Source of the DNA: a virus
Taxonomy: Duplodnaviria > Caudoviricetes
Direction: 5' to 3' (one strand)
IMG/VR virus record: IMGVR_UViG_3300005805_006996
Coordinates: 1-45,436 of that record
Length of the DNA stretch: 45,436 bases
Shown here: positions 16,033-45,354 of the stretch, in pieces
How the letters are laid out: the number at the start of each line of letters is the position of its first letter
How positions within the stretch are numbered: the stretch's first letter is position 1
Program-made: the position numbers and the translations under genes
The notes under the pieces: model-generated
Database searches by the model: none
The model's input: only the letters and a program-made list of their open reading frames with translations
What the model was told of the DNA's origin: nothing

Positions 16033-16107
16033 GCGTTAGTAGCTAAGTGGCATAGCAGGAGCCTCTAAAACTCTATATCGCGGGTTCGATTCCCGCCTAA
16101 CGCACCA
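16033..16107 (+). tRNA. Amber suppressor tRNA (anticodon CUA)
   Basis: GCGTTAG/CTAACGC acceptor, D-arm GCTA/TAGC, loop CT-CTA-AA (16065-16067), T-arm GCGGG TTCGATT CCCGC, A73, encoded CCA; C31-A39 mismatch. Confidence 0.88.
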
Positions 16108-33111: not shown

Positions 33112-34167
33112 ATGATCATCGACTGCGATAGCCACTATCTACCGTTAGACGTTTACAAGTACGTAAGTGAACGCTACAAAAAATATCTTCCTACATATAC
33201 GTATGTAGATGGTGTTCCTAAGATTACGGGATCTGATCCTATTAAACAGCACGATAACCCTTATGAATTTAACAGACACTGTGATTTACCCGGTGTAACC
33301 GATATACCTTCTAGACTAGAAGATATGGAAAAAATGCAAGTTAATATGCAGGTATTGGCGCCTCAAGACTTAGCATTACGTTTTAATTATAGTGTCGATC
33401 CTGATCTTGCAGCAGAAATGTGTCATAGTTATAATTTGTCATTGTTAAATTTAGATAGAAACAAATTTATCCTTGTGGGTTACGCTCCGTTGCAATCTAT
33501 AGAATCATCAATAAAAGAAGTAGAATGGCTACACAGTGTGGGTATCAATCAAATTTATGTGGATTTTGCAATACCCAACTCGGAAACAAAATTGTGTGGA
33601 TTGTGGAGAACAGTTAAAGATATAGACAAATTTTTAAAAGTAGTAGAAGCCAATGGCATGATTCTCTATGCACATCATTTTATGCATAGTCTTAAGCTTA
33701 ATCCAGAACAGTTTATAGATAAGCGATTGCCTGTTGATTTTATTAATGGCTTCATATCTGATTTTACATTGGGTGGTCTATTGCATAAGTTTCCCGATTT
33801 AAAAATTGTTTTGGCAGAATCTCCTAAGCTGGGAGCAGAATTGGTTAAGACTTTAGGTTTATGCATTCAACTATATGAAGAAGGAAACTTCGAAGGTGCT
33901 CACCCAAATGTTTACTACAAAAAAAATTTCTATGCTACAATTGATATTGAAGCTGAAGAAGTCGTTGAAAACTTCATCAAGTACTTTGGTGAAGATAAAG
34001 TTTTGTTCAGCACCGACTATCCGCACATAGACCCTTCGGGGATGAATAAATGGAATGATACAGAAGACCTAAAAAAATCTAAGTTGAACAGTATTACAAA
34101 AGAAAAAATAGCATACAAAAATGCAGTAGAATTGTTTAATTTAAATTTTGGGCAAACACAAATTTGA
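33112..34167 (+). CDS. Amidohydrolase-2 family protein (ACMSD/LigW-like)
   Basis: IIDCDSH, RLEDM, LLHKFPDLKIVLAE, LFSTDYPH. Confidence 0.85.
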   Translation: MIIDCDSHYLPLDVYKYVSERYKKYLPTYTYVDGVPKITGSDPIKQHDNPYEFNRHCDLPGVTDIPSRLEDMEKMQVNMQVLAPQDLALRFNYSVDPDLAAEMCHSYNLSLLNLDRNKFILVGYAPLQSIESSIKEVEWLHSVGINQIYVDFAIPNSETKLCGLWRTVKDIDKFLKVVEANGMILYAHHFMHSLKLNPEQFIDKRLPVDFINGFISDFTLGGLLHKFPDLKIVLAESPKLGAELVKTLGLCIQLYEEGNFEGAHPNVYYKKNFYATIDIEAEEVVENFIKYFGEDKVLFSTDYPHIDPSGMNKWNDTEDLKKSKLNSITKEKIAYKNAVELFNLNFGQTQI

Positions 34168-34192
34168 CTTTTAAAGAAAAAGCTGATATTAT
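34164..34192 (+). promoter_or_regulatory. sigma70-type promoter upstream of leader ORF
   Basis: TTGACT-17 nt-TATTAT; a TAAATA late-type motif also at 34216. Confidence 0.55.
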
Positions 34193-34229
34193 TACACACT
34201 ATTGATTCACAGGACTAAATAAACTTACT

Positions 34230-34367
34230 ATGAAAAACTTTACTTGTAACGCTATACTAAAACATGAGGCATTATGGTCCATTACAGCCATGAATACCTT
34301 TGCGCCAGTATATCCTACAAGTATCCGTGGCTCAAACGATCAAAGAGGCAGCCCGGGGACTAGGTAA
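34230..34367 (+). CDS. Putative attenuator leader peptide (45 aa, all 20 amino acids)
   Basis: MKNFTCNAILKHEALWSITAMNTFAPVYPTSIRGSNDQRGSPGTR*; 37 distinct codons; its 3' end lies inside the antiterminator arm. Confidence 0.7.
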   Translation: MKNFTCNAILKHEALWSITAMNTFAPVYPTSIRGSNDQRGSPGTR

Positions 34368-34402
34368 AGTCTAACATAGTACAGATTTATCTAACCCCTG
34401 GG
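34352..34402 (+). promoter_or_regulatory. Antiterminator hairpin (competes with terminator)
   Basis: CCCGGGGACTAGGTAAAGTCT (34352-72) pairs with AGATTTATCTAACCCCTGGG (34383-402), sequestering the terminator 5' arm. Confidence 0.7.
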
Positions 34403-34431
34403 AAACTAAAAAGTCTCAGGGGTTTTTGTTT
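34393..34431 (+). terminator. Intrinsic terminator (attenuator) before tRNA array
   Basis: AACCCCTGGG(AA)ACT-AAAA-AGTCTCAGGGGTT followed by TTTGTTT. Confidence 0.85.
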
Positions 34432-34447
34432 AGTGCTTTAGAAAAAT

Positions 34448-34476
34448 TTGACAATAAATGGAGAACAGATTAGAAT
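34448..34476 (+). promoter_or_regulatory. sigma70 promoter (copy 1 of direct repeat)
   Basis: TTGACA-ATAAATGGAGAACAGAT-TAGAAT. Confidence 0.8.
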
Positions 34477-34538
34477 GAGGATCTTTGACAGATTGGATCA
34501 ACATTCAAGTCTGCAAAAAAACAGAGACAAAAAATATT

Positions 34539-34567
34539 TTGACAATAAATGGAGAACAGTTTAGAAT
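34539..34567 (+). promoter_or_regulatory. sigma70 promoter (copy 2 of direct repeat)
   Basis: TTGACA-ATAAATGGAGAACAGTT-TAGAAT; 28/29 identical to copy 1. Confidence 0.8.
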
Positions 34568-34712
34568 ACGCAACTCAAGAATTTACAGATTGGTCAGAGC
34601 ATGTATATCTGACTTCAGAGCAAGTCGAGCAATTGATTGCCGAGAAGTTTGAACGTGCAAGGATTCAATCATTGGCTACTAAGCATCTACGAGAACAAGT
34701 GGATGTGTAGCA

Positions 34713-34928
34713 AAGTGTGTAGGCAACGCGGGCCAAGCGGCGCACTTAAAACATGTCGTGAAAGGGCGGACTGTAGGATGAAGCCTCTCTTGTGAGGTGA
34801 AAAATTACAGGCTAGGGTACAACCCTAGCATAGCGTAGAAATACGCTATTCTATAGTATACTGATGAAAATACGCCCATGGCTTTTGGCGCCATGACTAG
34901 CCCTCTAGTGTACTATAGAATAGTGTAT
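34713..34928 (+). ncRNA. Structured leader RNA of tRNA array (unassigned)
   Basis: Several hairpins (GCTAGGGT/ACCCTAGC; ATAGCGTA/TACGCTAT) and a 22-bp stem 34841-62/34907-28 ending at the tRNA-Gln 5' end. Confidence 0.5.
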
Positions 34929-35003
34929 AGCCCGTTCGCCAAGTGGTAAGGCATCGGATTTTGATTCCGACATTCGGTGGTTCGAATCCATCACGGGCTG
35001 CCA
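34929..35003 (+). tRNA. tRNA-Gln(TTG)
   Basis: Full cloverleaf, loop TT-TTG-AT, G73, CCA. Confidence 0.93.
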
Positions 35004-35018
35004 ACTAATAAATAGAAT

Positions 35019-35570
35019 ATGTTTTACTATCTATATGAATTTGCCTCCGAAAAAACAATTCAAAGGATTTGGGATATCATCAACAATGCCAAACCTGAAG
35101 ATTGGTGGAGAGAAAAAATGGGTGTTGAATGGCGTCTAAGTTTACCTCACAATATTTTTGAAAATGACTACAAGACAAATATTTTAATACAAAAATTTGT
35201 AGAACCACATAGGTTGTATGTGCAACGTTTAGAAGCGCATACATCATATGATTGGCATACTGACTATGCAAGAGACACATCTATTACATTGTGTCTTAAT
35301 GAATTAATTAGAAGTATGACGATTTTTTCAGAACATAAATCTATAAAAAGTCCTACTCATTGGCCTAATATAATGCCATTGCGATATCAAAAAAATGGTC
35401 TATATCTGATAGACGGTACTAAGCCTCATACAGGTATAAACTTCAGTGACAATATTAGATACTTGGTATCAGTGTCATTATCTAGACGAATGAATTTAGG
35501 TAAAGCAGTACGATACTTAAATACAATTTCAGAAGATCAGAGTTCCAAAGTAGGAATTCTTAGTCATTAA
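35019..35570 (+). CDS. 2OG-Fe(II)/cupin-like oxygenase
   Basis: WHTD...PHTGIN...RY; ATAAATA just upstream. Confidence 0.65.
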   Translation: MFYYLYEFASEKTIQRIWDIINNAKPEDWWREKMGVEWRLSLPHNIFENDYKTNILIQKFVEPHRLYVQRLEAHTSYDWHTDYARDTSITLCLNELIRSMTIFSEHKSIKSPTHWPNIMPLRYQKNGLYLIDGTKPHTGINFSDNIRYLVSVSLSRRMNLGKAVRYLNTISEDQSSKVGILSH

Positions 35571-35577
35571 TAGTAAT

Positions 35578-35652
35578 GCCTGGTTAGCTCAGAGGTAGAG
35601 CAGCGTCTTGATAAGGCGTTGGCCGCTGGTTCGATCCCAGCACTAGGCACCA
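35578..35652 (+). tRNA. tRNA-Ile(GAT)
   Basis: Canonical cloverleaf, loop TT-GAT-AA, CCA. Confidence 0.93.
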
Positions 35653-35661
35653 ATCAACAAT

Positions 35662-35749
35662 GTGTCTTGTCCCCGCTTGCGGTCTGTAAAATCGTAGCCA
35701 AAATAAGGTGGGTGGTTGGCAAGAGGTTCGATTCCTTCAAGACACACCA
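35662..35749 (+). tRNA. D-armless tRNA-Tyr(GTA)-like RNA
   Basis: GTGTCTTG/CAAGACAC acceptor, GCGGT CT-GTA-AA ATCGT, long variable arm, TTCGATT loop, CCA; no D-arm. Confidence 0.6.
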
Positions 35750-35755
35750 AACAAT

Positions 35756-35852
35756 GCCTCTATAGCTTAATTGGTAAAGCTCCTGATTGATACTCAGGCG
35801 ACGGCTCTAGATGAGGGCGTGAGTGTAGGTTCGAATCCTACTAGAGGTACCA
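35756..35852 (+). tRNA. tRNA-Ile(GAT) with abnormally long variable arm
   Basis: CCTGA TT-GAT-AC TCAGG followed by a ~26-nt extra arm; normal acceptor, D and T arms; CCA. Confidence 0.75.
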
Positions 35853-35860
35853 AATACAAA

Positions 35861-35938
35861 CTGGGTATATTGTCAACTTGGTAGACGGCCGGGCTTGGAA
35901 CTCGGAGGCTGCAGGTTCAAATCCTGCTACCCAGACCA
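35861..35938 (+). tRNA. tRNA-Pro(TGG)
   Basis: C1-G72, loop CT-TGG-AA (A37 instead of the usual G37), CCA. Confidence 0.88.
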
Positions 35939-35946
35939 AAGTTTTT

Positions 35947-36006
35947 AGGATGCTAACAGCAAATTTTAACATCAAACTGCTAATTTGAAACGTTAAAATG
36001 CATCCT
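35947..36006 (+). ncRNA. Scaffolded anticodon-arm RNA 1 (Ser GCU)
   Basis: AGGATGC/GCATCCT stem, TAACAGCAA, inner stem, TCAAA CT-GCT-AA TTTGA. Confidence 0.7.
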
Positions 36007-36017
36007 GTTATATCTGT

Positions 36018-36094
36018 TGGGGTGAGATGCGATAGGAAGCATACTGTCCTTTGAAGTCAGGTCTTAAGGGGTTCGAATCCCCTCACCCTTGCCA
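36018..36094 (+). tRNA. tRNA-Gln(TTG), divergent second copy
   Basis: Loop CT-TTG-AA, T-T mismatch in anticodon stem, G73, CCA. Confidence 0.78.
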
Positions 36095-36104
36095 AAATTT
36101 AAAT

Positions 36105-36180
36105 GCCGCTTTAGCTGATGTGGTCATAGCAACGGTTTGAAGCATCGTGGAAGTAGGTTCGATCCCTACAGGCGGCACCA
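36105..36180 (+). tRNA. tRNA-Phe(GAA), atypical loop
   Basis: Loop TT-GAA-GC, CCA. Confidence 0.85.
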
Positions 36181-36185
36181 ATCAT

Positions 36186-36261
36186 GCCCGCGAAGTATTA
36201 GCTGGTGGTATGCTGCCTTCGTAACGCAGAGGATTCAGTTCGAGGCTGAACGTGGGCACCA
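36186..36261 (+). tRNA. tRNA-Thr(CGT)
   Basis: Loop TT-CGT-AA, C-C mismatch at 31-39, T-loop TTCGAGG, CCA. Confidence 0.75.
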
Positions 36262-36264
36262 AAG

Positions 36265-36293
36265 TTGACAATAAATCCATTGTCATGTACAAT
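36265..36293 (+). promoter_or_regulatory. sigma70 promoter
   Basis: TTGACA-ATAAATCCATTGTCATG-TACAAT. Confidence 0.8.
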
Positions 36294-36324
36294 GCTTGCA
36301 TACGCTGAGAAATCAGCAATGCTC

Positions 36325-36520
36325 TTTAAAAGTTAATAGTAGGTTCTGTCTCTTGAAAAAGAGAACGGTAACGAAACGACAGCCAGCAGTTCTTAGTAAG
36401 TCAATGCGACTGAAAAGAGGGTGTCTTAGTAGAGAGGTGAATCCCCGTAGGGGATTTGTGATAAAGCCCTGGAGGCCTAAGCATGTAATGTGAGAAATCA
36501 TCCTACTGTCAATTTTTAAA
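36325..36520 (+). ncRNA. Unassigned ~195-nt structured RNA
   Basis: 19-bp closing stem 36325-43/36502-20; internal hairpins TCTCTT/AAGAGA, AGTC/GACT, AATCCCC/GGGGATT. Confidence 0.55.
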
Positions 36521-36589
36521 AGTTTGTTCTTTAATAAAGTGTGTATAAAGCGTGGGTTCTCAAAGAACCTCTGTGCAGAGAACATCTGT

Positions 36590-36663
36590 CCCGACACTAA
36601 TAGCGCCTGATGAGAGAGTAACGCCTCGAAACCATTTGGTAGCGCGGAGTGGCAACAGTCGGG
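36590..36663 (+). ncRNA. Type I hammerhead ribozyme within a 17-bp-stem-closed RNA (36540-36702)
   Basis: Stem I GCGC/GCGC, core CTGATGA (36607-13), stem II GAG/CTC, GAAA (36628-31), stem III ACC/GGT, GUA cleavage triplet ending 36641. Confidence 0.8.
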
Positions 36664-36706
36664 GAATAACGGTGCCACCAGGAGGTTCACGCTTTATGCA
36701 CATTTT

Positions 36707-36781
36707 ACACCGTGAGGCAGCTGGTGTGGCCGCTAGTCCTTCAAACTAGTGAGATGGGATCAAAACCCATACGGTGTACCA
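36707..36781 (+). tRNA. tRNA-Glu(TTC)-like, atypical (C33, A73)
   Basis: CTAGT CC-TTC-AA ACTAG, T-loop ATCAAAA, CCA. Confidence 0.65.
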
Positions 36782-36790
36782 AGAATCTAT

Positions 36791-36869
36791 TCCGCAGAAT
36801 CCGAGCATGGTGCACGGACTTGACTGTTAATCAATGACTAGCTGGGATCGTTACCCAGATGCGGAGCCA
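36791..36869 (+). tRNA. tRNA-Asn(GTT)
   Basis: Loop CT-GTT-AA, G73, atypical T-loop ATCGTTA, CCA. Confidence 0.8.
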
Positions 36870-36874
36870 AACAT

Positions 36875-36949
36875 GCCGTAGTGGTAGACTGGTAATACAC
36901 CGGATTGTCTATCCGTTCTATGAGGGTTCGATTCCCTTCTACGGCGCCA
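36875..36949 (+). tRNA. tRNA-Asp(GTC)
   Basis: Loop TT-GTC-TA, G73, CCA. Confidence 0.85.
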
Positions 36950-36951
36950 AT

Positions 36952-37101
36952 TATGGGATAGACGGTATGCTTGAGTCCCGAGCAGTCTAACATATCATGG
37001 GATATGTGACGAGCAAAGTGACTGTAAGGTAGATAAACTCGCATATACGAGACAATCCAACGAGGTCAGGTAACGCTGAATAGTTGGGCACCCGGCTCAT
37101 A
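36952..37101 (+). ncRNA. Unassigned ~150-nt structured RNA
   Basis: TATGGG/CTCATA ends; hairpins ACATATC/GATATGT, CTCG/CGAG, CCAAC..TCAG/CTGA..GTTGG. Confidence 0.45.
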
Positions 37102-37111
37102 TAAATATGAT

Positions 37112-37774
37112 ATGCTAAATCCAGTACATATAATTAACAATACTGATTCAGCCTCTATTCGAATTGGGCTTAAATTGTTACCTGCACAGCATAAGTATGC
37201 TATGCTCACCGATAAAGAAAAACTATTACTACTAACATTAGCTAAAACTATACCTAATAAGTCGGCTATAGTAGAAATAGGAACATATTTAGGAGGCAGT
37301 GCTAGTATACTTGCTCATGCAAATCCTAACAATAAAATTTTTTGTTTTGATACTTTCGATAAACAATTAGAAAATCGCATTTTAGATCCAGTATGGATTT
37401 CAGAAACTATCGGGCTTGGATCTATTCGTACTCTTGACAGTGTACAAGAAATTTTAAAAGAGTTTAAAAATATTAGACTAACAAAAGTTCCAACAAAACA
37501 TACTGTTATGGTTAATTGGCGAGCTCCAATTGATTTATATTTTGAGGATGGGAACCATACTGATCCGGTTCTTACTAAAAATATAATACATTGGTCATCC
37601 AATTTAAAGATAGGTGGCTTCATGGTATTACATGACTTTAGGCCGTATTTAGAAGTAGGATTTGGTAAACACCCAGATGTAGACCGAGCAGTAAATACGC
37701 TCATTAGGAATGATAAATGGAAATTCTGTGGTGTTGTTGATAGCACGGCAGTGTTTCAAAAATTAGAAATATAA
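37112..37774 (+). CDS. Class I SAM-dependent methyltransferase (Methyltransf_24-like)
   Basis: VEIGTYLGGSA, FDTF, DLYFEDGNH, GGFMVLHDF; TATAAATA upstream. Confidence 0.85.
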   Translation: MLNPVHIINNTDSASIRIGLKLLPAQHKYAMLTDKEKLLLLTLAKTIPNKSAIVEIGTYLGGSASILAHANPNNKIFCFDTFDKQLENRILDPVWISETIGLGSIRTLDSVQEILKEFKNIRLTKVPTKHTVMVNWRAPIDLYFEDGNHTDPVLTKNIIHWSSNLKIGGFMVLHDFRPYLEVGFGKHPDVDRAVNTLIRNDKWKFCGVVDSTAVFQKLEI

Positions 37775-37777
37775 ATT

Positions 37778-37852
37778 GGGGGCAGCAGTGGGCTGCGGCT
37801 GGGGCTTGCAACCTTAGTGTCTAGATGAGTTCGATTCTCACGGTCTCCACCA
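37778..37852 (+). tRNA. tRNA-Ala(TGC) with short D-arm
   Basis: G3-U70, A73, loop CT-TGC-AA, CCA. Confidence 0.75.
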
Positions 37853-37858
37853 ATCAAT

Positions 37859-37934
37859 GGGCCTTCGGCAGCTACAAGAGCGACCGGCGGAAACGCTTGC
37901 GGGCATTGACCGTAGCTGGTCATTGGGTCCACCA
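37859..37934 (+). ncRNA. 76-nt CCA-ending RNA with Ala-type acceptor stem but no D/T arms
   Basis: GGGCCT/GGGTCC-A-CCA (G1-C, G2-C, G3-U, A73); internal CAGCTAC/GTAGCTG stem. Confidence 0.55.
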
Positions 37935-37941
37935 AATATAT

Positions 37942-38036
37942 AGTGAGTTGACAGAGCCTGGCTTAATGTGCCTTCCTGCTAAGAAGTGCGCCGGCTAATA
38001 CCCGGCACGAGGGTTCGAATCCCTCACTCACTGCCA
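37942..38036 (+). tRNA. tRNA-Ser(GCT)
   Basis: Loop CT-GCT-AA, long variable arm, G73, CCA. Confidence 0.9.
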
Positions 38037-38041
38037 ATTTT

Positions 38042-38101
38042 AGGATGCTAACTGCAAATACAAGCATTTCACTGATAATGAAACCAAGCTCAATGCATCC
38101 T
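38042..38101 (+). ncRNA. Scaffolded anticodon-arm RNA 2 (Ile GAU)
   Basis: AGGATGC/GCATCCT, TAACTGCAA, TTTCA CT-GAT-AA TGAAA. Confidence 0.7.
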
Positions 38102-38112
38102 GTTATTTCAAT

Positions 38113-38186
38113 GGTGTCTTTAGTGTAGTGGTAGCAAACTTGACTGTGAATCAAGAGGCGAGGGTTCGATTCCCCAAGGCACCCCA
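38113..38186 (+). tRNA. tRNA-His(GTG)
   Basis: G-1:C73, loop CT-GTG-AA, CCA. Confidence 0.88.
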
Positions 38187-38196
38187 AACAATTTAT

Positions 38197-38273
38197 GCCC
38201 CAGTAACTCAGTGGACTAGAGTACTGTGCTACGAACGCAGGAGTCGGAGGTTCGAATCCTTCCTGGGGTGCCA
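38197..38273 (+). tRNA. tRNA-Arg(ACG)
   Basis: Canonical cloverleaf, loop CT-ACG-AA, CCA. Confidence 0.93.
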
Positions 38274-38280
38274 AACATAT

Positions 38281-38358
38281 GCGGGTAGATTGCGGCAAGG
38301 GGCGCCCAGCAGTCTTCCAAACTGATAATGCGGAGTTCGACTCTCCCTACCCGCTCCA
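38281..38358 (+). tRNA. tRNA-Gly(TCC), irregular D-arm
   Basis: GCGGGTA acceptor, U73, loop CT-TCC-AA, CCA. Confidence 0.8.
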
Positions 38359-38363
38359 CTTTT

Positions 38364-38423
38364 AGGATGCTAACTGCAAAATTATTTTTTTACTTTTATT
38401 GGAAAAAGCAAAAAATGCATCCT
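38364..38423 (+). ncRNA. Scaffolded anticodon-arm RNA 3 (Lys UUU)
   Basis: AGGATGC/GCATCCT, TAACTGCAA, TTTTA CT-TTT-AT TGGAA (two G-U pairs). Confidence 0.6.
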
Positions 38424-38433
38424 GTTATATATC

Positions 38434-38509
38434 GCTGATGTGGCACAGTCGGTAGCGCATTTCCTTGGTAAGGAAAAGGTCGCCGGTTCGATCCCGGCCA
38501 TCAGCACCA
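38434..38509 (+). tRNA. tRNA-Thr(GGT)
   Basis: Canonical cloverleaf, loop TT-GGT-AA, CCA. Confidence 0.93.
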
Positions 38510-38515
38510 ATTTAT

Positions 38516-38591
38516 GCCTAGTTGGAGTGAGAGGTTAACCGGCATCCTTACAAGATGTCTTATGCTGGTTCGAGTCCAGCACTAGGTACCA
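38516..38591 (+). tRNA. tRNA-Val(TAC)
   Basis: Loop CT-TAC-AA, weak D-arm, CCA. Confidence 0.8.
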
Positions 38592-38596
38592 GTTAG

Positions 38597-38705
38597 GGGA
38601 TACTCACAGCAAAACTATCCAAACGATAGGTTACTGGTTCGATTCCAGTATTACGCACATGCGTGATTAGCTCATAGGTAGAGCATTCGTCAAGAATAGT
38701 ATCCC
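38597..38705 (+). ncRNA. Circularly permuted tRNA (Gly-like) in CAGCAA scaffold
   Basis: Order is TCC-AA, anticodon 3' strand ACGAT, AGGTT, T-arm, acceptor 3' ATTACGC, ACAT linker, acceptor 5' GCGTGAT, TA, D-arm, A, TTCGT; closed by GGGATACT/AGTATCCC. Confidence 0.75.
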
Positions 38706-38714
38706 GTTTTATTT

Positions 38715-38842
38715 GGAGATGTGATGTAATGGTAGCATAGCACAGCAAAAACCGTATTCTGTTTTAGCATACGTGCAGCAACTCTATAGCTATCCCTCTG
38801 TAAAAGGGCTTGTCCGTGGTTCGAATCCCGGCGTCTCCACCA
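38715..38842 (+). tRNA. tRNA-Tyr(GTA)-like gene with ~53-nt insertion in the anticodon stem
   Basis: GGAGATG/CGTCTCC, D-arm, GC|insert with CAGCAA twice|CCT CT-GTA-AA AGGGC, T-arm, CCA. Confidence 0.6.
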
Positions 38843-38850
38843 AACACATT

Positions 38851-38926
38851 GTCCGGTTAGTTCAGCGGTATGAACGCTACCCTGACACGGTAGAGGTCAC
38901 TGGTTCGATCCCAGTACTGGACACCA
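38851..38926 (+). tRNA. tRNA-Val(GAC)
   Basis: Canonical cloverleaf, loop CT-GAC-AC, CCA. Confidence 0.93.
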
Positions 38927-38930
38927 AGGC

Positions 38931-38959
38931 TTGACAAATATTAGCAAGTCATATAGAAT
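38931..38959 (+). promoter_or_regulatory. sigma70 promoter
   Basis: TTGACA-17 nt-TAGAAT. Confidence 0.8.
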
Positions 38960-38986
38960 GAGTATATTCGATTAAAGGAGATTGAC

Positions 38987-39007
38987 ATGAAACGAGGTAA
39001 ACTCTAG
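38987..39007 (+). other. Minigene MKRGKL-UAG with strong RBS, followed by hairpin 39007-39043
   Basis: AAGGAG at 38975-80, ATG 38987, TAG 39005-07; GTGTCATCTTG/CAGGATGGCAC stem. Confidence 0.5.
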
Positions 39008-39070
39008 TGTCATCTTGAGACTCCGTATGGTCCAGGATGGCACGTTAAAGAAAACAAATAGTACGACCAT

Positions 39071-39145
39071 CCCAGAGAAACTTTGACGGTGAAGTCCTGC
39101 CTCTTAAGCAGAGAGAACTGAGTTCGAATCTCAGCACTGGGACCA
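39071..39145 (+). tRNA. tRNA-Lys(CTT)
   Basis: Loop CT-CTT-AA, one acceptor mismatch, CCA. Confidence 0.78.
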
Positions 39146-39148
39146 ATA

Positions 39149-39223
39149 CGGAGTATGGTGAAATGGTATCACAGCGGACTTTTAATCCGCCAATTCAGGG
39201 TTCGAATCCCTGTGCTCCGACCA
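39149..39223 (+). tRNA. tRNA-Lys(TTT)
   Basis: GCGGA CT-TTT-AA TCCGC, CCA. Confidence 0.92.
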
Positions 39224-39229
39224 AACTAT

Positions 39230-39305
39230 GCGGGTATAGCTCAGTTGGTAGAGCAGTAGACTTTTAATCTATTGGTCGTGGGTTCGAATCCCCCTGCCCG
39301 TACCA
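39230..39305 (+). tRNA. tRNA-Lys(TTT), second copy
   Basis: GTAGA CT-TTT-AA TCTAT, CCA. Confidence 0.92.
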
Positions 39306-39385
39306 TATAAAAACACATTCTAAAACATAACGATTTAGGATCATCAACGGATACTTTCAGCACATCCGCGAGTGTGTTTCTATAT

Positions 39386-39460
39386 GGTGATGTAGCATTA
39401 AGGTAATGTACCACCCTCATAAGGTGTCCTAAGGCGGTTCGATTCCGCCCATCACTACCA
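39386..39460 (+). tRNA. tRNA-Met/Ile2(CAT)
   Basis: Loop CT-CAT-AA, elongator-type acceptor, CCA; Met vs Ile2 not resolvable by eye. Confidence 0.85.
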
Positions 39461-39476
39461 AATTAAAGGAGATGAC

Positions 39477-39659
39477 ATGAAAACTGTATACTTTGAAAAT
39501 CCTAGAAACCACGAGAAATTTGAATGTCATGATTTAAAAGATGTACGAGTAATTGATGGCATCGAATATCTCAGAGTGTTTAAATTCGGAACGCAACGTG
39601 ATTGTCTTGTGCGTAAGGACCAATTGCGTAAGCTTAGTAAGAATGAAAAGCCGATGTAG
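39477..39659 (+). CDS. Small hypothetical protein overlapping tRNA-Phe 5' end
   Basis: AAGGAG RBS; TAG stop lies within the tRNA (GCCGATG-TAG). Confidence 0.7.
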   Translation: MKTVYFENPRNHEKFECHDLKDVRVIDGIEYLRVFKFGTQRDCLVRKDQLRKLSKNEKPM

Positions 39660-39725
39660 CTCAGTTGGTAGAGCAGCGGACTGAAAATCCGTGTGTCACT
39701 GGTTCGAACCCGGTCTTCGGCACCA
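39650..39725 (+). tRNA. tRNA-Phe(GAA)
   Basis: Canonical cloverleaf, loop CT-GAA-AA, CCA. Confidence 0.93.
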
Positions 39726-39826
39726 TGTGTCCAATTCTCTAGACTTTTACAGAAAAATTTTGTATAGTAACGTTATGCATACATGTTCTTGTGTGCTAAA
39801 CATTAACAGAGATTAGGACTTATTCA

Positions 39827-40663
39827 ATGAAAAAACACGTAAAAAACATTTTGGCTGCTACTATTATCGGTATGGCAAGTGCAGGCGCAATGGCTGACAC
39901 TAAACAGTGTAAGGTCGTTACACAGGGCCCCGGCGGTCTTACTGACCAGCTTTTTAGGATTATGGAAAAATATAATCCTGACTTTCAGGTTCAGTATAGG
40001 ATTTCTGGGTTTAACGTAACTCAAATTGATTTGCTAGAACAAGACAAGTCGTGGATGATGTTGTCCCCGCCTATTTTCTTTAGCAAACAAAATCCTCGCC
40101 CCAATCCTCCGATTGAGCAATTGAGGGTAGTTAGTTCTAGTAACGCTGCTATTGTTACAAACAAAGACTTGACTATCAAAGACTTTGCTGATAAGAAATT
40201 GAATGTAGGTATTCCGGCATTTGCTCAATACTCACACATTCTAGCACTCACGTTACAACAAAAGAATCCTGGTATCAACATTGTTCCGGTACCTGCTAAG
40301 GATGCTCCTGTTATATTGAAGAACGGTGATTTGGACGTATACATTCACACAGAACCAACAATTGACGTTATGGTAACTAATTTTGGTTTCAAGAAAATGG
40401 TTGTTGTTGCACCCGATGTACCAACAGATTTTAACGGAATCAAAACCCGTAGCTTGCATTTTAGTTCTATTTGGGTGCATAAAGATGCAACACCCGCACA
40501 AAAGCAAAATGCTATTAATTGTTTAGATAAACTTGCAACCAATCCTGCTTTCATCGAGGAGATTGCAAAAACAGGATCTACATCTAGGTTGACTATTTCA
40601 TCCGAAGAGCGTGATCGTTATCTAAATGATTTCAAAAATATGCTAAGGCAATGGGGTCATTAA
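39827..40663 (+). CDS. TctC/Bug-like periplasmic solute-binding protein (paralog of 32239-33057)
   Basis: Signal peptide ending AMA, GPGGLTD, NPPIE, KLNVGIP, DLDVY, VHKDAT..QK shared with the other copy. Confidence 0.72.
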   Translation: MKKHVKNILAATIIGMASAGAMADTKQCKVVTQGPGGLTDQLFRIMEKYNPDFQVQYRISGFNVTQIDLLEQDKSWMMLSPPIFFSKQNPRPNPPIEQLRVVSSSNAAIVTNKDLTIKDFADKKLNVGIPAFAQYSHILALTLQQKNPGINIVPVPAKDAPVILKNGDLDVYIHTEPTIDVMVTNFGFKKMVVVAPDVPTDFNGIKTRSLHFSSIWVHKDATPAQKQNAINCLDKLATNPAFIEEIAKTGSTSRLTISSEERDRYLNDFKNMLRQWGH

Positions 40664-40672
40664 AATAAAAAT

Positions 40673-40696
40673 AAACCGCTGATATCAGCGGTTTTT
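40673..40696 (+). terminator. Intrinsic terminator
   Basis: AAACCGCTG-ATAT-CAGCGGTTT-TT. Confidence 0.75.
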
Positions 40697-40700
40697 ACAT

Positions 40701-40790
40701 AGAGAGTTGCCTGAGAGGCTTAAGGGCGCACACTGGAAATGTGATGGTCGTGAAAGCGGCACGAGGGTTCGAATCCCTCACTCTCTGCCA
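40701..40790 (+). tRNA. tRNA-Ser(GGA)
   Basis: Loop CT-GGA-AA, long variable arm, G73, CCA. Confidence 0.9.
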
Positions 40791-40795
40791 ATTAT

Positions 40796-40903
40796 AGGAT
40801 GCACACAGCAAAACTTTAATGCCACCAACAATTTCGGCATGCCGTGCAAGTGGGCACCGTGGTTGAAATAGGGGTTCGATTCCCGGCTATACCACAGCAT
40901 CCT
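40796..40903 (+). ncRNA. Scaffold RNA 5 carrying T-arm/D-loop-like modules
   Basis: AGGATGC/GCATCCT, ACACAGCAA, hairpins TGCC/GGCA (x2, one with a GCAAGTG loop) and GGG TTCGATT CCC. Confidence 0.6.
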
Positions 40904-40916
40904 GTTTTACTACATT

Positions 40917-41004
40917 GGAAAGTTATCTAGGCTGGGCCTAGCACTGTCTCGAAAACAGATGGACTCAGTAATGGGTTAGAGTTCGATTCTCTAGCTTTCC
41001 TCCA
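40917..41004 (+). tRNA. tRNA-Ser(CGA)
   Basis: Loop CT-CGA-AA, long variable arm, irregular D-arm, U73, CCA. Confidence 0.75.
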
Positions 41005-41590
41005 GGATATATGGACGGAAATATTCTACCGCATCTGCCCAGTTAAGTATTAAATTTCCTCTGATACTAATGCAATGTCTAATGCTATGAGAGTGATTTA
41101 CAACTTGGTGCGGTACATCAATTCTTACTAACACTAGTTTGTTTTTTGGAAAAGTTAATTCTTCACTTACTTTTACTTGCCCGGGATCGTACATGATATA
41201 TGGAGAATCGGCATCGGTTATTCGTGATTTGCCGGCGTTGAATCTTGCAGGATAAAACCAGCGCATTGTTGAATGACTGTCACTGAACATGTAATTAAGT
41301 GCATAACTTTGAATTGGTTTTTTATTTATGTAAGTATCATAAGAAGTATCATCGTGAATTACTGATTTGGCTTTTGGATCACCTATAAATATTCTGGTCT
41401 GCATTCTAGGTTTTATGTTTAGAGTTTTGATGAAATCAAAAGCTTCAGTAGTAATGACCGTTGGTAAAAGCGGGTTTATAACAGTCCAAGCATACTCTAA
41501 ATTTTTTACATAGTTTTTAGGTGGTTGTACTTTGAGGTTTTCTCTAATAAAGGGACCGTGGTAATTTAAGATATAGTAATTTTTCAACAT
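40991..41590 (-). CDS. 2OG-Fe(II)/cupin-like oxygenase (tandem paralog A)
   Basis: IHDD...PHQVVN...RHCISIR. Confidence 0.65.
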   Translation of the reverse strand: MLKNYYILNYHGPFIRENLKVQPPKNYVKNLEYAWTVINPLLPTVITTEAFDFIKTLNIKPRMQTRIFIGDPKAKSVIHDDTSYDTYINKKPIQSYALNYMFSDSHSTMRWFYPARFNAGKSRITDADSPYIMYDPGQVKVSEELTFPKNKLVLVRIDVPHQVVNHSHSIRHCISIRGNLILNWADAVEYFRPYILEES

Positions 41591-41596
41591 TCTATT

Positions 41597-42184
41597 TTAG
41601 CTTCCGTTAACGAAGTGTGGGGAAAAGTAATCTACTGCATCTTCCCAATTTAATACAGGTTGTCCACGCATACTAAGACAATATCTGGTATTGTAAGAAC
41701 AATTTGTTACTTGGTGTGGTACATCAATTCGTACTAAAACTAATTTATTAATGGGAAAATCAATTTCTTCGTAAACCTTTAAACCCTTTTCAGATTCAAA
41801 TATCATATACGGACCACCTACGTTGTTCACACGTGGTGTAGCAACGTCAGGTCTGGCAGGATAAAACCATCGCATTTTAGCCTCAGTGTTAGTGAACACG
41901 TAGTTCAGTGCGTAACTCAAAACTGGTTTATTTTGTGATATCGTATCATATGCAGTATCCGTGTGAATTTTAGTACTTTTGCGAGGTTTGCCTACGTAGA
42001 TTCTACTGTCATACGCATGTTTAAATTTTAAATTTAAACGTATATAGTGTAATCCTTGTCTAGTTACCAAGCTCCACAATGGTGGGTTTAAAACAGACCA
42101 GTCTGTATCGTTTTTTTCAACATTAAGTTGCAGATTGTCACGAACAAATGGACCTTCATAGTCGAGTACATAGTAATTTTTCAT
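41597..42184 (-). CDS. 2OG-Fe(II)/cupin-like oxygenase (tandem paralog B)
   Basis: IHTD...PHQVTN...RYCLSMR; shares SYALNY, MRWFYPAR and NKLVLVRIDVPHQV with A. Confidence 0.65.
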   Translation of the reverse strand: MKNYYVLDYEGPFVRDNLQLNVEKNDTDWSVLNPPLWSLVTRQGLHYIRLNLKFKHAYDSRIYVGKPRKSTKIHTDTAYDTISQNKPVLSYALNYVFTNTEAKMRWFYPARPDVATPRVNNVGGPYMIFESEKGLKVYEEIDFPINKLVLVRIDVPHQVTNCSYNTRYCLSMRGQPVLNWEDAVDYFSPHFVNGS

Positions 42185-42196
42185 ATAGATATTTAT

Positions 42197-42283
42197 GCCC
42201 CGATGGACGAATGGGTAGAGTCACTGCGTTGAGGTCGCGGGTTAAGCGAATAGCTGGGAGTTCGAATCTCCCTCGGGGTACCA
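42197..42283 (+). tRNA. tRNA-Leu(GAG)
   Basis: Loop TT-GAG-GT, long variable arm, A73, CCA. Confidence 0.88.
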
Positions 42284-42286
42284 ATA

Positions 42287-42484
42287 ATTCAACATCCGAC
42301 CTAACGCAGGAAACTGAGGAAGTTCGGGACTTGTGGCAAGTGCGAGTAGGAGCGAAAGCGTTAATACTACCTTGATATAACAAGCAACACAAACAGAACT
42401 AGGCAACACTTGCGCTATTAGTTCGGGTTGTGGCAAAGACGAATGTTAGGATTGAAACAGAATCCCGGCTATGAGATGTTGAAT
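42287..42484 (+). ncRNA. rnpB: Minimal RNase P RNA
   Basis: P1 ATTCAACATC/GATGTTGAAT; P2 CCTAACG/TGTTAGG; P3 CAG-GAAA-CTG; CR-I GAGGAAGTTCGGG pairing with CR-V ACAGAATCCCGGCTA (P4 with bulged U); CR-IV AGACGAATG. Confidence 0.85.
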
Positions 42485-42487
42485 ATT

Positions 42488-42562
42488 CTCGCTGTAGTTC
42501 AATGGATAGAATAGTTCTCTCCTAAAGAATAGATGCAGGTTCGAATCCTGCCAGCGAGACCA
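42488..42562 (+). tRNA. tRNA-Arg(CCT)
   Basis: Loop CT-CCT-AA, CCA. Confidence 0.92.
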
Positions 42563-42564
42563 AC

Positions 42565-42593
42565 TTGACAAATAATGGTATTTGTTTTATAAT
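42565..42593 (+). promoter_or_regulatory. sigma70 promoter
   Basis: TTGACA-17 nt-TATAAT (perfect consensus). Confidence 0.85.
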
Positions 42594-42601
42594 CTAATCA
42601 T

Positions 42602-42676
42602 GGGACATTAACTCAGTGGAAGAGTCTTGGTCTTCGAAACCAAAGGTCGGAGGTTCGAATCCTCTATGTCCCTCCA
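42602..42676 (+). tRNA. tRNA-Arg(TCG)
   Basis: Loop CT-TCG-AA, U73, CCA. Confidence 0.88.
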
Positions 42677-42727
42677 ACAGGACGTTAAATAATGTGACAG
42701 ACATTTGATTTATTGAAAGGAGCGAAA

Positions 42728-43288
42728 ATGGCTGTTCTAGCACTTGATATCGCAGGAACTCCTCGGCAATGGATTTCCTACAACGATGCAATTAGTTATC
42801 ATGGTAGAAAAGCCGTGGCTTGGAGTCTAGGTGAAATCGTAGCACGATATCGCGGAGGCTTCCAAAAAGATGGTCGCCAAAGCTATCTAGAAACTACAAG
42901 CATCATCGCCATCAAAGGTCATGCGTTTGACCCGAGTAAACATGCACAAGTTGCACTAAGCAACCGAACACTGTTCGGTCGTGACCGTAACGTGTGTGCA
43001 TACTGTGGTGGACATTTTCCTAACTACAATCATCTTAGCCGAGACCACATTGTGCCTAAAAGCCGCGGTGGACTTAACACTTGGATGAACGTTGTTACAG
43101 CCTGTAAGGAATGTAACAGCTACAAGGGAAGCAAAACGCTTAAGGAAGCACGTATGGAACTTCTATATCTTCCTTATGTTCCTAACCACTTTGAAAACAT
43201 GATTCTGCAAAACCGTAATATTATTGCAGATCAAATGGAATATCTGCTAGCAGGTGTTCCGAAGCATAGTAGGATTCTACTCTCATAG
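42728..43288 (+). CDS. HNH endonuclease (McrA-like)
   Basis: RDRNVCAYCG, DHIVPKSRGG, W.NVVTACKECN; AAGGAG RBS. Confidence 0.93.
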   Translation: MAVLALDIAGTPRQWISYNDAISYHGRKAVAWSLGEIVARYRGGFQKDGRQSYLETTSIIAIKGHAFDPSKHAQVALSNRTLFGRDRNVCAYCGGHFPNYNHLSRDHIVPKSRGGLNTWMNVVTACKECNSYKGSKTLKEARMELLYLPYVPNHFENMILQNRNIIADQMEYLLAGVPKHSRILLS

Positions 43289-43293
43289 GAAGA

Positions 43294-43319
43294 AATCATG
43301 CGGGGAAACCCGCATGATT
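43294..43319 (+). terminator. Strong hairpin after HNH gene (terminator or processing site)
   Basis: AATCATGCGGG-GAAA-CCCGCATGATT; no clear U-tract. Confidence 0.5.
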
Positions 43320-43324
43320 ATTAA

Positions 43325-44704
43325 ATGGCAAATTTGATACTTTGGAATTGTTACAACATTGATTATGCTCCCGTTAGACCAGCCGGACCGCATCAGCTGG
43401 CTCATTGGTTGAATATTCATGGATACAATGTTAAAGTCATTGATTTTTGTCATTTGATGTCCGCGGATGATTTAGTAAATATTACACTTAAGCATGTTGG
43501 TAACGACACGATAGCCATAGGTGTAAGTACAACATTTTGGCATACTGAAAACAAGGCACTTCATAAGACTGAGCCGGACTGGGTCTTAAACGCTAGACAG
43601 AAATTAAGTAATATAAATGTCAAGTGGATGTTAGGAGGAGCCAATAGTAATGGAAATTTTTTGCTACCATGGGATATACTACATGGACACGCAGAAGATT
43701 CATTACTAAAATACATGGATGAGAATTCTTCAAAAAGTTTTCTTAGACCTAGTTTCGATATAACGAAACTAGAAAATTGTTTTTATGATGACTTGGCTAT
43801 ACAGCCTGATGAAGTATTACCTATAGAGTTAAGTCGTGGCTGTCAGTTCAAGTGTAGATTTTGCAGATATCCTCTTTTGGGAAAAAAGAAAAATACATAC
43901 ATTCGTGATTACAAATTGATAGAACAAGAGTTTTTAGAAAACTATCATAGATATGGTGTGACTAAATATTTTTTTCTAGATGATACTGTAAATGAAAGTG
44001 ATGAGAAGGTAGAAAATTTAGCAGAGATTGCACAACGATTACCATTCAAGCTAAGTTGGTTTGGTTATAATAGACTAGATATAATAGGTGTTAAGCCGCA
44101 TACAGCCGAGTTGTTAAAGCTGAGTGGGTTGAAAAGTTCATTTTTCGGTATTGAAAGCTTTCATCCACAGGCGAGTAAGATCGTAGGTAAAGGTTGGAGT
44201 GGCGCTAAAGGTAAAGAGTTTATCTTAAACTTAAGAGAAGAATGGAAGTCTGATATAAATTTTACTTTAGCCTTTATCATAGGTTTAACTGGAGAAACAG
44301 AACAAGATATCGACGCCACACATCAGTGGTGTATAGATAATGATATGCCCAGCTGGAGATTTGCGGGTCTGCACATTAATGCAGGGGATAATCAAATTTG
44401 GAAAAGTGACTTTGATTTGAACTATAGCTTATATGGATACAAGATACCTTTTCCAAATAATAAAGAATTTTGGATTAACAAACATTGGACTAGTATAACT
44501 GCGAGACAAAAAGCAAAAGCGTTGACTATAGATTTACAGCCGAGAACTAAGCCTGCAGTTTGGCTGCTAGGTGAATTATCTACTTTGGGTTATGATATGT
44601 CATATCTAATGCAAACTTATAAAAAAGATATCGACTGGGAAGATGTTAGGCAACGCAACAAACAGTTTGTTAATTTTTATGTATGGAAGCAATTAAATGA
44701 ATAA
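43325..44704 (+). CDS. Radical SAM protein with B12-binding-like N-terminal domain
   Basis: GVSTTF, LGGA, ELSRGCQFKCRFC, DDTVN, FGIES, FIIGLTGET. Confidence 0.85.
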   Translation: MANLILWNCYNIDYAPVRPAGPHQLAHWLNIHGYNVKVIDFCHLMSADDLVNITLKHVGNDTIAIGVSTTFWHTENKALHKTEPDWVLNARQKLSNINVKWMLGGANSNGNFLLPWDILHGHAEDSLLKYMDENSSKSFLRPSFDITKLENCFYDDLAIQPDEVLPIELSRGCQFKCRFCRYPLLGKKKNTYIRDYKLIEQEFLENYHRYGVTKYFFLDDTVNESDEKVENLAEIAQRLPFKLSWFGYNRLDIIGVKPHTAELLKLSGLKSSFFGIESFHPQASKIVGKGWSGAKGKEFILNLREEWKSDINFTLAFIIGLTGETEQDIDATHQWCIDNDMPSWRFAGLHINAGDNQIWKSDFDLNYSLYGYKIPFPNNKEFWINKHWTSITARQKAKALTIDLQPRTKPAVWLLGELSTLGYDMSYLMQTYKKDIDWEDVRQRNKQFVNFYVWKQLNE

Positions 44705-45269
44705 TATACTTTGGTGTCCAATAGACTTACCTAAATGTCCAGTAATTCCATCTGCTAAAACTGATTTTGTTTGGCATTTTTGGGAAGTTACCAAGCTAAC
44801 CGTAAATCACGACAATCCATACGATGTAACAGATTTTACAGAAGAAGTAAAAACGCTACATCCTGAGTTGGTGAAATGGTTTGAATTTTTTCCTTATAAA
44901 AATATAAGGAATATAAAATTGAATCATCAAATTACTCCGGTTAAAAGACACATAGATTTTACCAAGCCAGACATGGACCCATTGCTGCATGAAAATAATG
45001 CATTCAATGAGCCATGTGGGTATAGAATTCTATTAAAGGGCACTCGCAAAAATAAGTTGTATGTAGTACAAAATGGAGAAAAAATATATTGCGAAATGCC
45101 TGAAGATACTGACGTATACGTATTGGGACACACCTCTACTATGCACGGTGTCGATGATGATGAAGATAGGTGGACCATCTTTACGCATTTCGAAATCGAT
45201 GAATCAAGGCATCAAGAATTGCTCCAAAAATCATTGACAAAATATTCGAAATATGCTATTATTCGTTAA
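44697..45269 (+). CDS. 2OG-Fe(II)/cupin-like oxygenase
   Basis: RHID...MHGV...RW. Confidence 0.55.
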   Translation: MNNILWCPIDLPKCPVIPSAKTDFVWHFWEVTKLTVNHDNPYDVTDFTEEVKTLHPELVKWFEFFPYKNIRNIKLNHQITPVKRHIDFTKPDMDPLLHENNAFNEPCGYRILLKGTRKNKLYVVQNGEKIYCEMPEDTDVYVLGHTSTMHGVDDDEDRWTIFTHFEIDESRHQELLQKSLTKYSKYAIIR

Positions 45270-45279
45270 ATAAGATTAC

Positions 45280-45354
45280 GCCGAATTAGCACAGTGGTAG
45301 TGCAATCGCCTTGTAAGCGATAGGTCGTCTGTTCGAATCAGACATTCGGCACCA
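45280..45354 (+). tRNA. tRNA-Thr(TGT)
   Basis: Canonical cloverleaf, loop CT-TGT-AA, CCA. Confidence 0.92.

Follow-up and report, generated by a model that had tools for sequence, protein, structure and literature searches.

A short open reading frame (ORF) encoding all 20 amino acids stands at the head of a phage tRNA array and, with the RNA that follows it, probably constitutes a ribosome-driven transcription attenuator, in which a delay at almost any amino acid would let transcription reach the tRNA genes. Comparison of related sequences demonstrated the leader ORF, its place in front of the tRNA genes, the selection for a full residue set and the completion of this set just upstream of the predicted antiterminator. 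The stretch of DNA analysed, hereafter the window, is a whole linear virus record of 45,436 bases with a completeness estimate of 13%; the features discussed below are listed in Table 1.

Table 1. Features of the leader region and of the downstream units in the window.
Feature	Position	Strand	Description
Sigma70-type promoter (early/host RNAP), extended -10	34164..34192	+	10/12 match with TG
AGGA, possible distant ribosome-binding site	34211..34214	+	15 nt before ATG; putative function
T4-type late promoter motif CTAAATA	34215..34221	+	8 nt before ATG; presumably near-leaderless transcript
Leader ORF	34230..34367	+	45 codons; contains all 20 amino acids, the last to appear being Gln (codon 38)
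Predicted long hairpin inside ORF	34241..34323	+	-20.8 kcal/mol; outer helix ACTTGT:ACAAGT
Predicted 1:2 hairpin	34324..34357	+	segment 1 = codons Ile-Arg-Gly; segment 2 = CCCGGGG; -8.9 kcal/mol; weakly supported
Predicted antiterminator (2:3)	34352..34402	+	last five codons and stop paired with terminator 5' arm; -20.0 kcal/mol
Predicted intrinsic terminator (3:4)	34393..34431	+	stem 34393-34424, -16.5 kcal/mol, then U tract to 34431
Downstream sigma70-type promoter copy 1	34448..34476	+	11/12; bypasses switch
Downstream sigma70-type promoter copy 2	34539..34567	+	11/12; 30-nt duplicate of copy 1
orfX, conserved 53-aa protein	34549..34710	+	start codon inside downstream promoter's spacer
Conserved structured non-coding RNA	34715..34830 (ends approximate)	+	ahead of first tRNA
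tRNA array	34929..45354	+	ORFs and additional promoters in between; truncated by contig end

A recount of the leader ORF at 34230-34367 gave 45 codons, 37 of them distinct, and all 20 amino acids, in agreement with an earlier, sequence-only reading of this DNA, whose codon list for the ORF was likewise reproduced. That reading had proposed a simulation of random 45-codon ORFs, in which the diversity might have turned out unremarkable; it did not, since one random 45-codon ORF would reach both marks with a probability of 4e-4 (window composition) to 1.7e-3 (uniform). Among 9,972 45-codon segments taken from the window's long ORFs, none reached 37 distinct codons. All 20 residues were found in 6 of 353 ATG-initiated ORFs of 40-58 aa from the relative G002 and the window, both leaders being among the six. 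Folding of the whole leader returned z = -3.82. Contigs of RNA runs, which carry no strand, ends or level, cover 34355-34521 and 34546-34744 with 0-3 differences in one run and span the leader of a relative in another, and 33900-34186, the end of the upstream gene, is uncovered by contigs in 4/4 RNA runs.

Homologues of the leader were collected in protein searches with 9, then 120 of 122, then 36 matches. Locus searches, one of them taking 80 of 85 pattern matches, gave at least 111 records including the window, at least 74 of them distinct. One locus (L031) was left out because its terminator is missing; at 3001-3213 of this contig, shared with L200, the leader is fused directly to the structured RNA and the antiterminator end and terminator are gone, representing a natural deletion or a misassembly. 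In the remaining 73 loci, which are related sequences so that counts over them are not independent events, the leader, the predicted antiterminator and the predicted terminator are all kept, the ORFs having 43-57 codons. The sequence-only reading had allowed for an absence of this architecture from related genomes; at least 73 related loci were found to keep it. tRNAs lie downstream in 67/73 loci, and the other six contigs end no more than 613 nt past the stop codon; within 2.4 kb upstream, none of the 74 loci has a tRNA. Neither of the two remaining sense frames is open in any of 71 loci. Short-type peptides keep a Trp and a YPTSIRG block, and only Ser31 and Gly43 are invariant among 75 of them. 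In five long relatives (221-525 kb), a gp55-like sigma factor was found in 5/5, with 27-32% identity to T4 gp55 (E 4e-6 to 4e-5), and no sigma70-family gene was found in any of the five, which together identify the phages as T4-like jumbo phages.

For the analysis of residue content, 15 records were dropped (11 internal-start calls, two untrimmable, two long and unrelated), leaving 175 distinct homologous peptides. All 20 residues are present in 144 of these, 19 in a further 27 and fewer in four; the 31 incomplete peptides mostly miss Cys (13) or Val (9). In a column shuffle that kept site preferences, 42.7 ± 4.9 of the 148 short-type peptides would be complete versus 119 observed, and for the longer type the corresponding values were 11.0 ± 2.2 and 25 of 27. 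Among representatives with less than 60% identity, 20/27 were complete versus 4.6 ± 1.8 after shuffling. When sequences were simulated on the tree, starting from real all-20 roots, 52 ± 17 of 148 peptides were complete, with a maximum of 98 in 300 runs, compared with the 119 observed; the simulation diverges less than the real set, and at half rate 5/300 runs reach 119. Single copies of Cys, Val, Asp, Glu and Lys shift between alignment columns.

To avoid collecting look-alikes only, leaders were also sought via the downstream structured RNA. For this set, 80 of 114 matches were taken, at least 70 distinct loci had enough upstream DNA, and the terminator was defined first and the ORF second. 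A terminator plus an ORF was found at 61/70 loci; the nine failing the terminator pattern comprised four apparent chance matches in unrelated DNA, one deletion and four with leader and terminator. Of the 61 ORFs, 45 contain 20 residues, 11 contain 19 and five fewer. Among 29 divergent leaders with a mean pairwise identity of 26%, 16 have 20 residues and 25 have at least 19, versus 2.9 and 11.3 after shuffling. The neighbouring orfX served as control, with all 20 residues in 0/41 proteins. Judged by these comparisons, completeness of the 20-residue set is a selected trait. The conserved diversity that the sequence-only reading had suggested looking for in leaders of related phages was thus found as an amino-acid completeness beyond shuffle and tree expectations. 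A chance ORF was ruled out by the random-ORF odds, the column shuffles, the tree simulation and the independent ascertainment via the downstream RNA.

The residue set is completed 7-10 codons before the stop codon in 108/119 short-type peptides. The completion point tracks the position of the antiterminator (rho 0.80, n = 41), an antiterminator lying deeper in the ORF going along with earlier completion (6-10 vs 8-17 codons), and the set is complete before the antiterminator bound in 40/41 leaders compared with 10.8 when the order is shuffled; all these values are raised by relatedness and by the G-rich constraint at the end of the ORF. Such a shift of the completion point with the antiterminator is a prediction of the attenuator model.

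At the level of codons, 71 leaders average 35.3 distinct codons, compared with 31.6 expected from phage gene usage and 33.8 from uniform choice given their residues. They cover 31.8 of 42 decoding classes versus 28.0 (gene usage) and 29.1 (uniform). The 37 codons of the window are at the top of the range across leaders (31-40). Five anticodon types of the array have no cognate codon in the window's leader (Val-GAC, Leu-GAG, Thr-CGT, Ser-CGA and Lys-CTT), and the G002 leader contains Phe and Cys with no such tRNA among the 24 found in G002. A strict pan-codon design was weakened by the rarity of Val GUY and Leu CUY, present in 11% and 14% of the 71 leaders. Of the 'pan-codon' leader initially proposed, the part concerning amino acids, all of them under strong selection, stood, and the part concerning codons was reduced to a tendency: the leader is established as 'pan-amino-acid' and tends towards 'pan-codon'.

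The two helices at the end of the leader are predicted to be mutually exclusive, from folding with covariation support. The arms of the antiterminator are 34352-34372 and 34383-34402, and the window folds as originally described (-20.0 vs -16.5 kcal/mol), with the hairpin at the ORF end sequestering the 5' arm of the terminator. Over the 73 loci, the competing 2:3 fold has a median of -20.9 kcal/mol; the core of the predicted terminator stem lies 21-31 nt past the stop codon in 73/73, with a median of -13.9 kcal/mol, and changes on both sides at 3/10 of its pairs. In 42 aligned loci, with one clade one base out of register, 84.3% of the cells of the 2:3 helix are paired compared with 19-60% in slid controls, and 21 cells are changed on both sides versus 6.2 ± 2.0 after shuffling (0/500 shuffles reach 21). 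The three-way pairing of segments 2, 3 and 4 is kept, with all three changing together in L042, L004 and L009, and segment 2 is retained in two different reading frames. This retention across frames and the joint change of the segments would follow if it is the RNA that matters rather than the residues. Covarying hairpins before the tRNA arrays of related phages, which had been put forward as a check, were accordingly found for the 2:3 and 3:4 helices.

Inside the ORF, the outer helix of the long hairpin is conserved including wobble positions (ACAAGT in 64/64 and ACTTGT in 62/64 short-type loci); covariation was looked for in this hairpin and none was found. For the 1:2 stretch, the best fold has a median of -8.4 kcal/mol over 73 loci, with little sequence variation, and the sequence block of this hairpin is absent from divergent leaders.

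Folding with a ribosome mask, the nascent RNA being taken up to the terminator loop, gave 2:3 in at least 98% of 64 loci at A-site positions -12 to -7 and in 3% at -6; with a longer ribosome footprint, the 2:3 edge was at -9/-8. The helix formed at all A-site positions as far as 7 codons ahead of the stop codon (9 with the longer footprint) and was lost past this point. At equilibrium with the full transcript, the terminator wins at most early stalls (median P 0.84-1.0, A-site -45 to -19), and in the absence of a ribosome its median P was 0.999. Termination dips only where the ribosome covers segment 1, and the combination of 1:2 with 3:4 has roughly the same stability as 2:3. Since equilibrium favours the terminator at early stalls, sensing of early codons would rest on kinetic trapping of the 2:3 helix.

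The promoters named in the sequence-only reading were recovered at 34164 (10/12) before the leader and at 34448 and 34539 (11/12 each) past the terminator. Upstream of the leader, a sigma70 match of at least 10/12 is present in 73/73 loci, AGG(A/G/C) is kept in 72/73 and TAAATA occurs in 73/73, 5-8 nt before the ATG and in 69 of them 7-8 nt. From the T4 late consensus, we take TAAATA to be a late promoter giving a near-leaderless RNA. In G002, TAAATA peaks 4-5 nt before ATGs, at 25 genes versus one for three pooled control motifs. The same motif stands 4-5 nt before starts at five genes in the window. The peak before starts in G002 and these window genes suggest that late mRNAs lacking a leader are common in these phages. 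In 23/30 divergent loci, the distance from the end of the sigma70 -10 box to the ATG is 6-10 nt; given such starts and the late motif near the ATG, leaderless initiation is likely. The Shine-Dalgarno sequence that had been called weak adjoins the late promoter motif, 7-8 nt ahead of the ATG, and starts would often be leaderless. By eye, TAAATA is nested in the spacer of the leader's sigma70 promoter in the divergent loci L146, L158, L173, L182 and L210.

Downstream of the terminator, 62/67 close relatives show a sigma70 match (10/12 or better) ahead of the first tRNA; among divergent loci, a strong match lies in this stretch in 8/23 and is missing in 15/23. The window's array holds four more sigma70 matches of 11-12/12, giving six strong ones downstream in total. 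With two promoters past the terminator and four in the array, the window's switch cannot gate the whole array, and the early caveat that control may apply only to late or boosted transcription agrees with these six promoters, which fit boosting.

The protein encoded by orfX has 46 distinct homologues of 47-57 aa, the start lying in the spacer of the downstream sigma70 promoter or directly before this promoter, a position that the homologue filter itself required. No convincing match was found for it in Pfam, PHROG, NCBIfam or Atlas. With its start inside the promoter spacer, orfX could be encoded only by readthrough RNA in single-promoter relatives, and in most relatives it would be reached by readthrough alone; in the window, promoter copy 1 can transcribe it. 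The structured RNA shows compensatory changes at 19/23 predicted pairs (27 sequences) and occurs in 67 distinct copies in related loci, its core missing in 4/73; a 20-letter pattern for it gave 114 matches in viral contigs. Neither this RNA nor the leader has an Rfam match. Just before the first tRNA (34846-34928, + strand), inverted-repeat arms surround a spacer, and similar arms were seen by eye in relatives. The count of about 31 phage tRNAs had been too high: 22 were detected at the ARAGORN default threshold and 28-29 with relaxed settings, and the contig ends inside the array. Elsewhere in the window, a lone tRNA at 16033-16107 (+ strand) has the anticodon CTA (amber suppressor type; Pyl according to ARAGORN), and TAG terminates only 3/43 long ORFs.

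In the proposed mechanism, folding predicts that a ribosome about 6-7 codons or less from the stop codon removes the 2:3 helix, upon which the terminator would form. With the ribosome lagging upstream, 2:3 would form before the 3' arm of the terminator exists, and readthrough would be the default unless translation keeps pace. The early sigma70 promoter and the late promoter would both feed the switch. In the window, readthrough would add to basal transcription from the downstream promoters, as a boost or late control and not as gating; in most of the divergent relatives, it would be the only evident route to orfX, the structured RNA and the first tRNAs. The purpose may be a resupply of tRNA when charged tRNA is short, be it through host tRNA decay, anticodon nucleases or starvation. 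We lean, if only slightly, towards a wider reading in which a large group of T4-like jumbo phages carries a universal decoding gauge, its leader selected to probe each amino acid ahead of a kinetic stop/go switch, with negative feedback on their own tRNA supply and a readthrough-only protein, so that tRNA-cleaving defences would switch on the antidote.

An attenuator that is real and has orfX, with the structured RNA, as its main output, a stress-induced small protein, the tRNAs being transcribed mostly from their own promoters, is the least improbable of the alternatives, albeit unlikely. In its favour are the 46 distinct sequences (pre-filtered for position) in which orfX starts within the downstream promoter or a short way before it, a start contained only in readthrough RNA where one promoter copy exists, and the bypass promoters in 62/67 loci. 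Against it, the full switch occurs without orfX in several clades (L009, L024, L035-type and L079), 15/23 divergent loci lack a strong sigma70 match between the terminator and the first tRNA, and the window's promoter copy 1 can transcribe orfX. That the ORF instead encodes a functional small protein, with a plain constitutive terminator after it and the 20 residues inherited as by-products, is very improbable. The Trp and the YPTSIRG block kept by short-type peptides speak for it; the conserved block, however, falls on predicted helices and on wobble bases that do not vary, completeness exceeds the column-wise and tree-wise expectation and persists at 26% identity, the leader peptide has no family match, and the conserved antiterminator would be left without a role.

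We give hardly any credence to a nascent-peptide arrest sensor of the SecM/TnaC/ErmCL type, with one stall site for a specific ligand or drug. The conserved Trp and the C-terminal S-I-R-G loosely recall arrest peptides, but some members have Cys, Phe or Leu in place of the motif's Arg, the motif is missing from the 29 divergent leaders, and one arrest site alone would not account for keeping all 20 residues. There is an equally slight chance of an RNA switch or small RNA that acts independently of translation and is a target of protein or RNA binding, the ORF being incidental: the stable ORF-internal hairpin with its invariant outer helix and the preference for termination in equilibrium folding without a ribosome speak for it, whereas the closure of the other two sense frames in all 71 loci and the absence of an Rfam match speak against it, and completeness with its tie to the antiterminator position needs translation. 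The translated attenuator is the reading that we retain.

An exact 23-nt pattern scan of viral contigs gave 0 matches, and blastn and tblastn searches against cultured phages (50,697 phage records) gave only tRNA matches or E > 5. In 185,579 bacterial and archaeal genomes, the short-type motif was met at two loci, both rejected as chance matches, in frames resembling membrane proteins and with no tRNAs. From five cultured phages, stretches flanking the arrays were filtered for an ATG-initiated ORF of 30-70 aa with at least 19 residues and a hairpin plus U run; nothing passed in those analysed for Mendera, RSP15, XacN1 and Atu_ph07. Xanthomonas phage X1 (OQ427096 about 135559-135734; L259 4560-4735) has an unannotated 39-codon ORF after ATAAATA, with 19 residues, a terminator and a helix across the stop codon, situated about 370 nt ahead of the first tRNA annotated there. 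Phage BUDD (L270 721-895) has a counterpart with 18 amino-acid types. Equilibrium folding of the X1 look-alike gave the terminator at every ribosome position. In the main text of the X1 genome paper, the terms 'leader', 'attenuat', 'terminator' and 'promoter' do not occur (PMC13384950). A possible relation of the X1/BUDD look-alike to the phage leader family is a lead.

It has long been asked why phages carry tRNAs. A sensor of all 20 amino acids, selected as such and wired to the array, would mean that the phage expects unpredictable decoding failure and supplies tRNA on demand, which would favour depletion or defence as explanation over the compensation of codon bias. If true, this would represent a feedback-controlled tRNA array in a virus as well as a compact natural reporter of starvation for any amino acid. 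In a T5-like tRNA-rich region, phage tRNAs were reported to offset the loss of host tRNA under tRNA-targeting defence, the rescue depending on the level of expression and on promoter strength (PMC11555353). For that array a strong promoter is described, and 'leader' and 'attenuat' are absent from the main text (PMC11555353); here, feedback control is proposed.

In leaders of amino-acid operons, codons for between one and three cognate amino acids are repeated, and the genes under control are biosynthetic ones or encode synthetases. The phage leader resembles those of trpL, hisL and pheL and the multivalent ones of thrL and ilvGMEDA in having a short ORF, predicted 2:3 and 3:4 helices and a predicted intrinsic terminator tens of bases past the stop codon; the 1:2 helix of such leaders has a weakly supported candidate in the phage. 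The phage leader differs from them in containing all 20 residues, the rare ones mostly as single copies, in a sensing that would be spread over about 38 codons, in starts that would often be leaderless, and in having orfX, a structured RNA and tRNAs downstream. T-box riboswitches likewise sense uncharged tRNA and switch between terminator and antiterminator; they bind one tRNA directly via a specifier codon, with no translation, and no Rfam T-box model matched at gathering score or E ≤ 5. Unlike arrest peptides of the SecM/TnaC/ErmCL type, the phage leaders lack an invariant C-terminal arrest motif.

The statement in the sequence-only reading that no system like this had been described was too strong, since the upstream ORF (uORF) of Mycobacterium smegmatis whiB7, with 19 amino acids, is reported to sense many starvations (PMC10274678). 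There, according to the same account, a single Trp codon suffices for Trp sensing and loss of the start codon raises readthrough (PMC10274678), and the tRNA-cleaving toxin VapC5 induces whiB7, which its authors link to uORF stalling (PMC10287673). Common to whiB7/wblC and the phage element is an ORF of broad amino-acid content before an antiterminator and terminator, stalling in the uORF leading to antitermination in the former (PMC10274678). The whiB7 uORFs are described as enriched in alanine, that of M. tuberculosis as missing several residues, and the target as a transcription factor (PMC10274678); in the phage leader, completeness is selected within 40-60 codons, the mean Ala content is 2.6, the setting is a virus and not an actinobacterial chromosome, and a tRNA array is targeted. 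Neither an all-amino-acid leader nor attenuation of a phage tRNA array was found described in full-text literature, a search with most subscription journals outside its coverage. The phage leader is not a member of the whiB7 family, nor does it belong to the single-amino-acid type of attenuator. Leader-peptide attenuation and broad sensing by the whiB7 uORF are known; new are the selected coverage of 20 residues, its occurrence in phages and its position upstream of tRNA arrays.
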